Source: Escherichia coli 042
GTDB lineage: Bacteria > Pseudomonadota > Gammaproteobacteria > Enterobacterales > Enterobacteriaceae
Reading direction: 5' to 3' (one strand)
Length of the DNA stretch: 64,000 nt
Assembly (NCBI RefSeq): GCF_000027125.1
Contig: NC_017626.1
Position 1 is the first letter of the stretch. Each line of letters begins with the position of its first letter. The notes beneath the pieces are model-generated. The model saw nothing but the letters and a program-made list of their open reading frames with translations. It ran no database searches and was not told the origin of the DNA. The translations under genes and the position numbers were made by a program. Shown here one piece after another: positions 35,143 through 39,004 of the stretch.

Positions 35143-35348
35143 TTCTTTTTTCACCATCAATATCCCGGCCATGTGTCGGGATTTTTTTCTTACGAAAAAA
35201 CGACACTTAACAAGTACCAGGTATAAAATATGCCTTATGAGCGAGCGGAAGCGTTTTCCGTATCCATAAATACAAAAGTATTTTGTATGCGTGGTTTTGA
35301 ATTTATTGATGGTAAGTATTAATGTTTTTTCTAAGGACAACTAAAAGA

Positions 35349-36062
35349 ATGGAATCATACTCGCAAAACAGCAATAAATTAGATTTTCAGCACGAGGCCA
35401 GGATATTAAACGGCATATGGCTCATTACAGCTTTGGGTTTGGCGGCAACCGCAGGACTGGCCTGGGTAGCGAAGCATCTTGAAATTACGGCAACAAAATA
35501 TGATTCACCGCAAATGTATGTCGCCATAGGATTATTATTACTTTGTATGTATGGTTTAAGTAAGGATATCAACAAGATAAATGCCGCCATCGCAGGCCTA
35601 ATATATCTGTTTTTACTCTCTTTGGTGGCGATTGTCGTTGCTAGTTAAGTTCCTGTATCTGCCATTATCGTCGTGTTCAGCACCGCGGGCGCGATGTTTT
35701 TAATCAGTATGCTGGCCGGTTTATTATTTAATGTTGATCCTTGTTCTCATCGTTTTATCATTATGATGATGTTGACAGGGTTGGCCCTGGTGATCATCGT
35801 GAATGCCGCATTAATGAGTGAACGGCCCATTTGGGTAATAAGTTGCTTAATGATTGTGTTATGGTCAGGCATTATCTCGCATGGACGAAATAAGCTCCTT
35901 GAACTGGCAGGAAAATGCCATAGCGAAGAGTTGTGGAGTCCGGTTCGTTGCGCTTTTACAGGTGTATTAACACTCTATTACTATTTTATCGGCTTCTTTG
36001 GGATTCTTGCAGCAATAGCGATAACGCTTGTCTGGCAAAGGCATACGCGGTTTCATATTTAA
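35349..36062 (+). pseudogene. ybhM: ybhM interrupted by an in-frame TAA at 35646..35648
   Basis: Two ORF-track fragments (to 35648, and from 35673) are in the same frame and separated only by a single TAA; overall span equals a full-length gene. Confidence 0.7.
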
Positions 36063-36120
36063 CGCACTTTCGACTTACGTTTAGAAATGTAGTATCTGAA
36101 ATATAATAGTGGAGAATATC

Positions 36121-36498
36121 ATGCAGTTAGTTTGTACCATCGATAAAAAATATATGGATAAATTTATGGCTATACTGTTTTCAGGAGTGTTACATTCCTT
36201 GAAAGAAGGTTCAATAACTATAGATGAATCTGAACTACTTGTTTTTAGACCTTTTATTTCCAGGCTTTTGCACAAAAATAGTTGTGATAAAGAGTTAATA
36301 GATATAATCGATCTTGGTTGTGAGTTTGAAGATATTGAGTCCCTGGTTCCTGAGCATCTTGATGATGCTATAAAAAACTTAATAACCAAAGTAAGTGATT
36401 TTACATATGCAACAAAAGATAATTATCCCTTGAGTGATAAAATGGAACATGCAGTATCTTTTATGTTTACAAATAACAACGGGCATGATGTGCATTAA
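36121..36498 (+). CDS. Island ORF-A, acidic hypothetical protein
   Basis: ATG with GGAGA RBS; AT-rich; C-terminus ...DNYPLSDKMEHAVSFMFTNNNGHDVH recurs in the remnant at 37705..37830. Confidence 0.5.
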   Translation: MQLVCTIDKKYMDKFMAILFSGVLHSLKEGSITIDESELLVFRPFISRLLHKNSCDKELIDIIDLGCEFEDIESLVPEHLDDAIKNLITKVSDFTYATKDNYPLSDKMEHAVSFMFTNNNGHDVH

Positions 36499-36586
36499 TG
36501 TGGAATGCTAATAAATTGACCATAATTATGTATTCTTAGAATAGTATTGCAAATGTTAATTATGAAAATAAATATTGTGGATTATA

Positions 36587-37045
36587 ATGAAAAATAAAAT
36601 CGAGTTTGATCAGGCTATTAAAAATGCTTATCTCGATATGGCGTTTCCCAACTTTGCATTTGTGATGGAGAAGTATAACTCATTAAAATATAAAGGCATA
36701 ATTACTGAGTTGAGTTCACGGTTTGATGTAAGAGATAACACTGAATTAAATAATGATGTTTGTTTTTCATTAGAAGTTGTTTTGCAAGAAGGTATTGCCT
36801 TTTTATATATGTCTTTTGTCGGGCAATATGCATTTATAATATTCAAAAACGACGTTATAACAAAACATGCAAATATAAATGCAGATGTAGCAGGTTTAAT
36901 TGATATATTGCTTTGTCATGAATTCATGATTTTGGATAAAGAATTTTTACTAAGTGAAGTTAGTTGCGATATTTGTCCGTTTTTAGTCGAAGCAAATAAT
37001 AAATATTTAAATTATTTATTCGCTCGTGGATTGAAAATAAAATAG
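36587..37045 (+). CDS. Island ORF-B, hypothetical protein
   Basis: 152-aa AT-rich ORF co-directional with ORF-A (track start 36575). Confidence 0.45.
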   Translation: MKNKIEFDQAIKNAYLDMAFPNFAFVMEKYNSLKYKGIITELSSRFDVRDNTELNNDVCFSLEVVLQEGIAFLYMSFVGQYAFIIFKNDVITKHANINADVAGLIDILLCHEFMILDKEFLLSEVSCDICPFLVEANNKYLNYLFARGLKIK

Positions 37046-37104
37046 CGTTATTGTTAACTAGTTTAAGATATTGAAATTTGTTATTTAACATATCAGGATG
37101 TTCT

Positions 37105-37704
37105 ATGTTAATAAAGTTAATTGATTTACAAACTATCAAGATTTTCGAAAAAATAAACTCATCTTCATCCGATTTAAGTAAGGAAATAAAAATAAAATCG
37201 CCGCTTCTAATTCCCTATGAAAATCAAGGGGTAACATTTTATTGTGATGAGCTATATGTATTTGATTCCGATGGTTATATTGTATTTGGTCATGATTTAG
37301 ATGGTTATTTTATTGTTAGCGTAAAAAACAAGAAAGTTTATTACTTGTATGATATAGACGAATGCGCAAATTTTACGATGATGTATTGCAATTCTGGAAT
37401 AAATGATTTTATTATATTCAATAATATTTTTATGCAGGCGGTTTTTAAACAATCAGAATTGATGGAAAAACAATTGTTAACAGATGATGAAATTTTATCA
37501 GATGCAATGGATGCTATATTTACCCAATGCGACAGTGAGGCTATGAAAGATGATGCCTTCTGGGGCTTAAGATGCTACGAGCTTCGCGACGGCTTTTTTC
37601 CTTTAAATGATGCCAAAATTAAATTTTATAGTGAAATGGAAAAAGGTCCTCATCAAGGCAAAAGTGAATCCATTCACAAGAGCAAGTTGAACAAAAATGA
37701 TTAA
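37105..37704 (+). CDS. Island ORF-C, hypothetical protein (possible immunity-protein-like fold)
   Basis: 199-aa ORF with AGGA RBS; C-terminal ...DAFWGLRCYELRDGFFPL... motif. Confidence 0.45.
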   Translation: MLIKLIDLQTIKIFEKINSSSSDLSKEIKIKSPLLIPYENQGVTFYCDELYVFDSDGYIVFGHDLDGYFIVSVKNKKVYYLYDIDECANFTMMYCNSGINDFIIFNNIFMQAVFKQSELMEKQLLTDDEILSDAMDAIFTQCDSEAMKDDAFWGLRCYELRDGFFPLNDAKIKFYSEMEKGPHQGKSESIHKSKLNKND

Positions 37705-37830
37705 ATGAGAGGCTCTTCACATCGCCGCTTCATTATTCGTCCAGAAAAAGATGATTATCCCTTAAGTGATGAAATGGAAAATGTGGTTTCCTTGGGATTT
37801 AGCAATAATAAGGATTTGCAGAATGTTTAA
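37705..37830 (+). pseudogene. Remnant of an ORF-A paralogue fused to a ybhN-3'-like repeat
   Basis: 41-codon frame MRGSSHRRFIIRPEKDDYPLSDEMENVVSLGFSNNKDLQNV; last ~26 aa align with the ORF-A C-terminus at ~75% nucleotide identity. Confidence 0.45.
37715..37741. repeat. Direct repeat copy 1: duplicate of the ybhN 3' terminus
   Basis: CTTCACATCGCCGCTTCATT is identical to 38046..38065, with partial similarity extending further. Confidence 0.7.
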
Positions 37831-38044
37831 AGATAAAACTGTCGCAGCGGAAATTAGTGCATTAATGCTTGAGATTGGTGCGAAATTAGATAATTCCGTT
37901 TCAGTTGTTCAGATAAGTTGTGATGAATCTGAGTTTAATATTTATCGGGCCGCCGTTGGTGAAATTATGGGGCGCATGCTAATCGACATCATGAACCCCA
38001 TTTATAAACAGCATCCCGAACTTAAACAAAAAGAACTTAACTAA
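37826..38044 (+). CDS. Island ORF-D, small hypothetical protein
   Basis: 72-aa ORF from MFKDKTVAAEISALMLEIGAKL...; ATG overlaps the remnant stop. Confidence 0.4.
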   Translation, partial: FKDKTVAAEISALMLEIGAKLDNSVSVVQISCDESEFNIYRAAVGEIMGRMLIDIMNPIYKQHPELKQKELN

Positions 38045-38045
38045 A

Positions 38046-38072
38046 CTTCACATCGCCGCTTCATTTTTCGCC
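38046..38072. repeat. Direct repeat copy 2: the genuine ybhN stop and last codons
   Basis: Same 20-mer; encodes the ybhN C-terminus ...AKNEAAM* on the minus strand. Confidence 0.7.
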
Positions 38073-39004
38073 CGCAGCTTCTTCGCCTGGCTTTCCAGTA
38101 ACAGGTAACAGATCAGCGCCAGCAGCAGTGGGATAAAGTAATACAGCACACGATAAGCGAGTAGGGCGGCGATAATTGTGCCTTTAGATGTATGCTCCCC
38201 TGCCAGTAGCGCGATAAACACCGCTTCCAGCACACCAATTCCCGCCGGAATATGCACGATGACACCAGCAATACTACTAACCAGCAACACGCCCAGTACA
38301 AAGAAATAGTTCACGCTTTGACCAAGTAACAGCCAGATTATCGCTCCCATTACCATCCAGTTAACGCTGGAAATCAGCATCTGGGCGAGGGCAAATTTCC
38401 ATGAGGGCAGCACCAGTTTTTGCCCTTTGATGGTCATATGGCGGTGCTTCGCGAAAGCGCAAAACCACAAATAAACCGCGATAATCATCAATAAGCCAAT
38501 GCCGAGAATACGCAGTGTAGTTTGATCGACATACCAGTGATCCGGCAACTCCACCACGCCTGCGGTAAAGATAATCCCCGCCAGTAAAATATAGCCCAGC
38601 CAGTTGGTGGTAATACTCAGCGAGAAAATCCGCGTGATAGTGCTGCCCGGTAACCCTAGCCGGGAGTACAAACGATAGCGCATACCAATGCCGCCGACCC
38701 AGGTACTGAGTGTCAGGTTGAAGGCGTAGCAGATAAACGACACCAGCATCACCTGGCGCTTCGCCAGTTTGTGACCGCAGTAGAAGCGGGCGAGCAGGTC
38801 ATAGCAGCCGTAAATCAGATAACTGACGACCACCAGCCCGACCGCACTAAGCAGCGCAACGCGATTGTAGTCGCGGATGACCTTCCAGACCTCTTCCCAG
38901 TCCACCTTTTTGGCGTAGACCACCAGCAACACAATCACCGCGATAAAAAACAGCCAGGTGAGGATCTTCTTTGCTAAGCGCCAGCGCGGGTGTGATTTAC
39001 TCAT
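38048..39004 (-). CDS. ybhN: Inner membrane protein (UPF0104 family)
   Basis: 318-aa multi-TM ORF; translationally coupled to clsB. Confidence 0.85.
   Translation of the reverse strand: MSKSHPRWRLAKKILTWLFFIAVIVLLVVYAKKVDWEEVWKVIRDYNRVALLSAVGLVVVSYLIYGCYDLLARFYCGHKLAKRQVMLVSFICYAFNLTLSTWVGGIGMRYRLYSRLGLPGSTITRIFSLSITTNWLGYILLAGIIFTAGVVELPDHWYVDQTTLRILGIGLLMIIAVYLWFCAFAKHRHMTIKGQKLVLPSWKFALAQMLISSVNWMVMGAIIWLLLGQSVNYFFVLGVLLVSSIAGVIVHIPAGIGVLEAVFIALLAGEHTSKGTIIAALLAYRVLYYFIPLLLALICYLLLESQAKKLRAKNEAAM

Follow-up and report, generated by a model that had tools for sequence, protein, structure and literature searches.

The 64,000-nucleotide stretch of Escherichia coli 042 DNA analyzed here (contig NC_017626.1; hereafter the window) carries, between ybhM and ybhN, an island of four small open reading frames (ORFs) that we read as a probable array of immunity genes. 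The genes moaC-moaD-moaE-ybhL-ybhM precede the island on the plus strand and ybhN-clsB-ybhP follow it on the minus strand, with 1985 nt separating the ybhM stop (36062) from the ybhN stop (38048). Measured over 36050-37700 in segments of 300 nt, GC content is 25-33%, compared with 50-57% in the flanks moaC-moaE and ybhN-clsB, which bears out the AT-rich tract of about 2 kb described in a first-pass annotation that a model had made from the letters and an ORF list. Because the low-GC tract starts to the left of the island, at about position 35150, ybhM (about 40% GC) falls within it. The 8 kb surrounding the locus are 100% identical to LECL01000063.1 and 99.95% identical to LR134246.1.

The four ORFs, A to D, are co-directional on the plus strand and encode proteins of 125, 152, 199 and 72 aa, exactly the lengths listed previously; they are accompanied by one gene fragment. 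Intergenic gaps are short (88 nt between A and B, 59 nt between B and C, 121 nt between C and D), and the last of them is occupied by a putative recombination scar and the fragment (Table 1). Sequences resembling ribosome-binding sites (GGAG, AGGA or AAGGA) lie 7-9 nt upstream of the ATG in A, C and D. The match for ORF-B is weaker, so that the earlier attribution of such a site to every ORF holds for three of them and less well for the fourth. All four proteins are acidic, with isoelectric points (pI) of 4.7-5.0 (4.85 for A, 5.0 for B and 4.67 for C), and exact A, B and C are accessions CBG33699-CBG33701. The island holds no further ORF beyond A-D, and no toxin candidate was detected in it.

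Table 1. Features of the ybhM-ybhN interval, in window coordinates.
Feature	Position	Strand	Description
ybhM pseudogene	35349..36062	+	Bax inhibitor-1/YccA family; left border; TAA at 35646-35648
Candidate promoter	36080..36107	+	TTTAGA-16-TATAAT; 13 nt before ORF-A start
ORF-A, 125 aa	36121..36498	+	DUF3969 (PF13108); predicted CdiI/RhsI-type immunity protein, no cognate toxin here
ORF-B, 152 aa	36587..37045	+	no family; predicted further immunity protein, weakest assignment
ORF-C, 199 aa	37105..37704	+	SUKH-4 family immunity protein, PF14435
Putative recombination scar	37715..37742	.	28-nt ybhN 3'-end duplicate, 26/28 identical to 38046-38073
DUF3969 3' remnant, predicted second, displaced allele	37743..37830	+	77% identity to 36414-36479; collinear with RMDEC465
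ORF-D, 72 aa	37826..38044	+	two-helix hairpin; predicted immunity partner of Cys-rich-tailed Rhs proteins
ybhN	38048..39004	-	convergent right border

ORF-A matches the Pfam family DUF3969 (i-Evalue 3e-16, model positions 4-85 of 106) and is 39% identical (E 7e-19) to a 117-aa DUF3969 protein of Pseudomonas aeruginosa. The P. aeruginosa gene begins 13 nt past the gene of a 3430-aa CdiA with TPS, Fil_haemagg and DUF637 domains, and 3' of the pair lies an orphan toxin/immunity array with Deam_C, EndoU, Ntox24, Imm42 and Imm35. This placement is the cdiI position, as in Pseudomonas loci of contact-dependent inhibition of growth (CDI) (PMC4725963). The link was first met by tblastn of plasmid records, in which DUF3969 stood directly after a DUF637 haemagglutinin-type protein; the exact P. 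aeruginosa protein is chromosomal and is indexed in 1842 blocks. The two "plasmid" records matched in PLSDB (NZ_OL790696.1 and NZ_CP116719.1; L025 and L024) are probably chromosomal as well: one is 4.8 Mb long and the other is a 24-kb linear record whose cdiA-DUF3969 region matches P. aeruginosa chromosomal loci (L026-L029).

The same association was found in E. coli with a different delivery system. Of 5426 complete E. coli genomes, 950 have an orphan module linked to rhs, in which a toxin tail interrupted by an internal stop comes before a DUF3969 gene that is truncated at its N-terminal side. Its DUF3969 product is 47% identical to ORF-A, and its tail is 59% identical to the last 87 residues of the P. 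aeruginosa CdiA. The module lies just upstream of a PAAR-Rhs gene, amid ISAs1 and IS66 (L023 376-1315; L030 7028-7940). Two delivery systems in two genera thus pair one toxin tail with DUF3969, which is the signature expected of an immunity family, and because of this pairing we read DUF3969 as a putative family of CdiI/RhsI-type immunity proteins. The immediate position 3' of a cdiA or rhs toxin end is true of the DUF3969 homologues and not of ORF-A, which follows ybhM instead of a toxin gene; we accordingly class ORF-A as an orphan. For the CdiA tail located before DUF3969 (about 90 aa, with the motif IRNTY...HYF) neither NCBIfam nor the PDB gave a match, and no paper naming DUF3969 was found in a literature search; the predicted immunity role of this family is a modest new lead. 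A metagenomic sequence (P0013; L007 2346-3226) in which 149 nt of an E. coli DUF3969 gene are joined to a Fic gene was rejected as a DUF3969-Fic fusion, being probably an assembly chimera across a scaffold gap, with XXXX in the neighbouring ORF.

For ORF-C, a faint likeness to SUKH/SMI1 proteins had been suspected from its C-terminus, and the family assignment now has a profile match behind it: residues 55-153 match Pfam SUKH-4 (PF14435) with an i-Evalue of 6.9e-6 (model positions 78-173 of 179). PF14435 is also the precomputed assignment of all four clusters of ORF-C homologues, and the NCBI/RefSeq label of the exact protein (P0014) and its homologues is "SUKH-4 family immunity protein". A role in immunity has been proposed for SUKH proteins, the supernumerary copies in tandem being seen as a guard against toxins of non-self origin (PMC3113570).

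ORF-B always sits between A and C. It has no match in Pfam, NCBIfam, PADLOC, PHROGs, the PDB or plasmids, and profile comparison showed it to be unrelated to ORF-C. Its relatives at the sequence level form only three clusters, with named members in E. coli, E. fergusonii and Shigella sonnei. The AlphaFold2 model of ORF-B is weak (mean predicted local distance difference test, pLDDT, of 61). Searched with Foldseek against AFDB50, it returned uncharacterised proteins of about 150-170 aa from many phyla (E 3e-7 to 1e-3), in Gilliamella (33% identity) and then Rothia, Saprospira, Streptomyces, Sorangium and Burkholderia. One of these relatives is A0A242NER2 of Gilliamella. These model-based matches suggest that ORF-B may belong to a sporadically distributed family.

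ORF-D has no Pfam, NCBIfam or PADLOC match, and none of 75 members of its family matched a Pfam model. Its AlphaFold2 model is a confident two-helix hairpin (pLDDT 96.5), for which Foldseek returned generic helical hairpins from the PDB, all with E>1. An exhaustive phmmer search with ORF-D showed the family to be widespread: at E<=1e-3 it collected 514 representatives, most of them free-standing proteins of 70-80 aa. The alignment of 14 sequences that was used for a genome scan gave just 8 loci. Four sequence-distinct loci (L011-14, L017, L032 and P0139) have a D homologue 1-4 nt after, overlapping or fused to a protein that ends in a shared Cys-rich tail of about 45 aa, C..[IV]K..C...CS.[ST]SLPT.D.GF.FWNCVN.[CF]M...GC. 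Rhs/YD proteins account for three of the partners: those of L011-14 (RHS core domain TIGR03696, E 8.6e-27 for L011), that of L032, which has RHS repeats and a YD-shell, and the fusion P0139. The fourth, in Polyangium (L017), is a 389-aa protein with the same tail. A position right after a polymorphic toxin C-terminus is therefore seen in D homologues (L011-14, L017, L032, and P0139 by fusion) and not in the window. The tail has no match in NCBIfam or the PDB, and Pfam gave only a glycine-zipper match. The apparent tie between a family that lacks a Pfam model and an undescribed Rhs tail is a further modest lead. Outside Escherichia, D, a compact ATPase and a Rhs protein with this tail may form a three-gene module (L032 2-4368; L033; L034 77-1061; L011-L014; P0139).

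Taken together, three of the four products can be placed among immunity-type proteins, A and D through the genomic context of their homologues and C through Pfam, whereas ORF-B has no assignment. We consider it probable that the island is a strain-variable heterogeneous polyimmunity locus, because it consists of tandem, co-directional and closely spaced genes for unrelated, predicted immunity-type proteins whose content varies between strains. The array of immunity proteins or orphan cassettes proposed in the first-pass annotation is thereby supported, by SUKH-4 in ORF-C, by DUF3969 homologues in the cdiI/rhsI position and by D-family genes behind Rhs tails, and its remark that none of the ORFs resembles a housekeeping protein also stands, as none could be assigned to such a family. 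The stacked proteins would be small, acidic, cytoplasmic and of families unrelated to one another, with DUF3969 and SUKH-4 joined by an unassigned 152-aa protein and a 72-aa hairpin. Each would bind, and so neutralise, a single type of C-terminal toxin domain that other bacteria deliver through CDI (CdiA) or through Rhs proteins and secretion systems of type VI (T6SS). As no toxin is encoded in the island, the genes would act as orphan immunity against non-self toxins; when the 64-kb window was searched by tblastn with the tails of the two partner toxins, nothing was found at E<=1. On this reading the four alleles would be expressed, each product would bind its own kind of toxin, and ORF-B would be a further immunity protein. 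The island could in this way protect the strain from toxins injected by its rivals.

Several observations weigh against a polyimmunity locus. ORF-A is only 39-47% identical to its toxin-adjacent homologues, and immunity proteins are usually allele-specific. The SUKH-4 match of ORF-C is partial and moderately significant, and ORF-B comes without a family, without informative genomic context and with a low-confidence model. A number of D homologues are solitary, no toxin lying close to them; elsewhere D-family genes are repeatedly linked to an ATPase of about 250 aa, of the type found in ATP-binding cassette (ABC) and structural maintenance of chromosomes (SMC) proteins, which is absent here, so that the native role of D may need a partner. 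No toxin cognate to these alleles was found. E. coli often silences AT-rich DNA such as this, and the ybhM pseudogene and the DUF3969 fragment show that the locus is partly decaying.

The variation of the locus between strains allows its history to be reconstructed in part. At least six architectures were seen in the ybhL-ybhN interval. K-12 has ybhL-ybhM-ybhN; RMDEC465 and Escherichia sp. MOD1-EC7003 have ybhL-BI1x-ybhM-A-D-ybhN; GF4-3 has ybhL-BI1x-ybhM-BI1y-A-B-C-ybhN; EC42405 has ybhL-A-B-C-ybhN; E. whittamii has ybhL-(BI1x fragment)-D-ybhN; and the window has ybhL-ybhM*-A-B-C-[scar]-[A' fragment]-D-ybhN, where BI1x and BI1y denote additional Bax inhibitor-1-like paralogues and the asterisk in ybhM* a nonsense allele. 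Positions 37672-37739, comprising the end of ORF-C and 28 nt of the ybhN 3' end, match the point where ORF-C meets ybhN in EC42405 and L008 at 98.5% identity. Starting at 37746, the sequence runs collinear (92%) with RMDEC465, through the DUF3969 3' end and then D and ybhN of that strain. The decayed paralogue fragment reported earlier was recovered here as a 66-nt segment (37746-37811) that shares 77% identity with the ORF-A 3' end (tblastn E 3.7e-5), and its intact counterpart lies directly upstream of ORF-D in other strains.

The 28-nt scar appears to mark the former junction of an A-B-C cassette with ybhN. Because the left part of the array matches strains with the ORF-C/ybhN junction and the right part matches RMDEC465, the array is a mosaic, best described as a stack of two pre-existing cassette types. 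In the sequence of events that we propose, an A-B-C cassette already joined to the ybhN 3' end would have entered an older DUF3969-D arrangement within its DUF3969 gene, and this recombination at ybhL-ybhN would have left the 28-nt ybhN duplicate and the truncated DUF3969 gene. Spread probably occurred by homologous recombination through the conserved flanks. Cassette alleles are 72-96% identical to one another and the flanks 95-97%; the alleles of the window are mosaic, A and B being nearest to GF4-3 (96%) and C to EC42405 and L008 (92-94%). A fixed place in the chromosome where cassettes would be stacked, marked by a clear recombination scar, is a modest new lead.

In K-12 MG1655, ybhM ends at 821506 and ybhN at 821542, which leaves a spacer of 35 nt. 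The short K-12 spacer given in the first-pass annotation is thus correct, and the 2 kb are absent there. The direction of change that had been assumed, an insertion relative to K-12, has to be turned round. At its end the K-12 spacer repeats 38030-38047 exactly, over 18 nt that comprise the last 15 nt of ORF-D plus 3 nt, and the score of this match was reached in 0 of 300 shuffles. Because of this ORF-D remnant, and because ORF-D is present at the same site in two other Escherichia species, K-12 represents a deleted state in which the cassette was lost, and the island of this strain is no simple insertion. K-12-type strains would have deleted all but the last 15 nt of ORF-D.

Other rearrangements were observed next to ybhN. 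In Escherichia sp. MOD1-EC7003, ybhN is reduced to about its first 37 codons between ORF-D and clsB (L015 8219-8377). In the EC42405-type locus a palindromic sequence, by eye similar to repetitive extragenic palindromes (REP), lies between the SUKH-4 gene and ybhN (L002 ~4060-4250), and after it comes a repeat of the SUKH-4 3' end, a further sign of rearrangements at the ybhN 3' end.

The four ORFs are rare. Of the 5426 complete E. coli genomes, 34 have D, 38 have A and 5 have B-C, always on the chromosome and as a single copy; none combines all four. Exact copies of A, B and C are present on 87-104 public contigs. Compared with diverged alleles, ORF-A has a dN/dS of 0.13-0.36, ORF-B of 0.35-0.47, ORF-C of 0.11-0.27 and ORF-D of 0.20-0.30. 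Because of these copies and ratios (0.11-0.47 overall), the ORFs are judged to be real genes and not chance reading frames, and because the ratio for ybhN is 0-0.04, selection on them is purifying but relaxed, as expected for accessory conflict genes.

The same data bear on the simplest alternative, that the genes are silent, decaying leftovers of toxin-immunity modules which confer no present benefit and are heading to a K-12-type deletion. Their scarcity in E. coli, the deletion scar in K-12, the nonsense codon in adjacent ybhM, the DUF3969 fragment inside the island and the very low GC content would all fit such a relic. Even so, we regard it as unlikely, since all four frames are intact and identical copies recur on so many contigs, since the dN/dS values among alleles that differ by up to 28% in nucleotide sequence point to continued selection at the protein level, and since ORF-D is retained at the ybhN site in three Escherichia species. 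A second alternative comes from the relatives of ORF-D. A D-family gene abuts a 250-251-aa AAA_15/AAA_21 ATPase in four sequence-distinct loci outside Escherichia (L011-14, L032/L033, L034), where the sequenced ATPases share 62-64% mutual identity, and the gene of a similar 253-aa ATPase follows the P0139 fusion. ORF-D, and perhaps the whole array, could on this evidence belong to a multi-component system of ATPase-coupled immunity or defence built on a compact ABC/SMC-type ATPase, and weak PADLOC matches of the ATPases (mad3 at 3e-21, AriA, PtuA) are in line with this. Those matches cover only generic P-loop regions, however; tblastn of the window found no such ATPase, and in Escherichia D pairs with DUF3969 or stands alone. 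Moreover, a Rhs protein with the Cys-rich tail lies upstream of D in three of the five ATPase loci, which fits D as an immunity gene. An ATPase-coupled system is in our view quite unlikely to account for the island.

It is very unlikely that a pair within the island, most plausibly ORF-B with the SUKH-4 protein ORF-C, forms a self-contained toxin-immunity or addiction module that stabilises it. B and C do occur together in five of five genomes, and ORF-B, which lies outside known families, could have a toxic activity. Yet ORF-B is acidic and has no delivery or pre-toxin domain, its dN/dS is like that of the other three ORFs, and none of the four ORFs matched a toxin or toxin-antitoxin (TA) family in NCBIfam, Pfam or PADLOC; such a module should also resist loss, and the interval is deleted in most E. 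coli. The low GC content, the patchy spread and the small uncharacterised genes are also typical of defence islands, which raises the idea of an uncharacterised anti-phage defence system or the remnant of a mobile element. This we consider hardly credible: PADLOC gave 0 families at E<=1 for the four ORFs, PHROGs gave marginal matches only (E 0.01-0.03), no enzymatic domain was found in the ORFs, and there is no integrase, transposase, tRNA or Rfam element. Nor are there terminal direct repeats, the sole flank-related repeat being the internal 28-nt ybhN duplicate, and the island DNA had no match in 50,697 phage and 72,556 plasmid records. The small defence or addiction module that the first-pass annotation offered as another explanation thus finds no counterpart in PADLOC and no toxin candidate in the island.

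A polyimmunity locus thus remains the reading that we prefer. A more ambitious version of it would make the ybhL-ybhN interval a genus-old, dedicated site for collecting immunity genes, with cassettes stacked at the ybhN 3' end and three undescribed immunity families (DUF3969, D and ORF-B), of which the D family would be the partner of the Cys-rich Rhs tail of about 45 aa and of the compact ATPase. Taken as a joint claim, this is conceivable and rather doubtful.

The left border of the island is not an intact gene. In this strain ybhM is a pseudogene because of an in-frame TAA at codon 99, where the K-12-like allele has Leu; the nonsense codon splits it into ORFs of 108 and 129 aa. The allele is 94.5% identical to K-12 YbhM over 235 aa, and the identical split is also present in matching public contigs L005 and L006. 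Tandem genes for Bax inhibitor-1 (BI-1)/YbhM-like membrane proteins vary in number in the low-GC tract left of the island (L001 691-2900; L003 698-2220; L015 6019-7569): including ybhL, there is 1 in EC42405, 2 in K-12, 3 in RMDEC465 and 4 in GF4-3. No NCBIfam model matched the fourth paralogue of GF4-3 (232 aa). These variable paralogues might belong to a conflict-related repertoire. A literature search for ybhM together with ybhN found no paper.

As to transcription, a scan of the region for promoters and terminators gave a total of sites no higher than in shuffled sequences. Its best sigma-70-like match, at 10 of 12 positions, is the element upstream of ORF-A, which we treat as a lead only, a candidate promoter for a putative A-B-C-D transcript. 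The stops of ORF-D and ybhN are 3 nt apart on opposite strands without a terminator-like structure between them, and their convergent transcripts would overlap.

Orphan immunity genes are thought to decide strain survival under contact-dependent attack in crowded niches, such as the gut. The natural alleles of this locus span the empty K-12 state, cassettes of one, two and three genes and the stacked state, so that gain and loss are directly testable in a tractable organism. The analysis also provides functional leads for three unannotated families, namely DUF3969, the 70-80-aa hairpin family and a 152-aa family confined, by sequence, to Escherichia and Shigella, and it points to two toxin tails, the CdiA/Rhs tail of about 90 aa and the Cys-rich Rhs tail.

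Loci of this kind had been described before, and two of the four proteins carry a label in RefSeq. The orphan immunity genes and acquired interbacterial defence clusters of the T6SS field are immunity genes kept without a cognate effector and are presumed to protect against non-kin. The island is like them in keeping immunity-type genes without an effector; they are often found on mobile elements with recombinases, whereas there are no mobility genes here. Orphan immunity is also mentioned in the abstract of PMC10539506. A second likeness is to cdiA-CT/cdiI and rhs-CT/rhsI modules (CT, C-terminal toxin region) with their orphan arrays (Poole et al. 2011, PMC3150448; Mercy et al. 2016, PMC4725963): DUF3969 homologues lie in cdiI/rhsI-like slots, D-family genes occupy the slot after Rhs tails, and GC content drops in the CT/immunity region. 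The island differs from these modules: within it and close to it there is neither cdiA nor cdiB, nor an rhs core, an orphan toxin fragment or a pre-toxin motif, and, unlike in orphan CT/immunity pairs, its immunity-type genes stand alone.

The closest resemblance is to the heterogeneous polyimmunity loci described by Zhang, Iyer, Aravind and co-workers (Biol Direct 2012, PMC3482391; NAR 2011, PMC3113570), for which PMC3482391 gives same orientation, short gaps and content differing between strains as traits. The island shares with such loci tandem, co-directional, unrelated small genes, one of them SUKH, the lack of a full-length toxin and variability between strains. It differs in size, the published loci reaching up to 19 genes compared with four here, and in having no adjacent recombinase. 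Of its families, two or three (DUF3969, the D family and B) are missing from the Imm families named in the portion of PMC3482391 that was searched, where "DUF3969" has 0 occurrences. Finally, the site of the present array is a fixed chromosomal interval between housekeeping genes.

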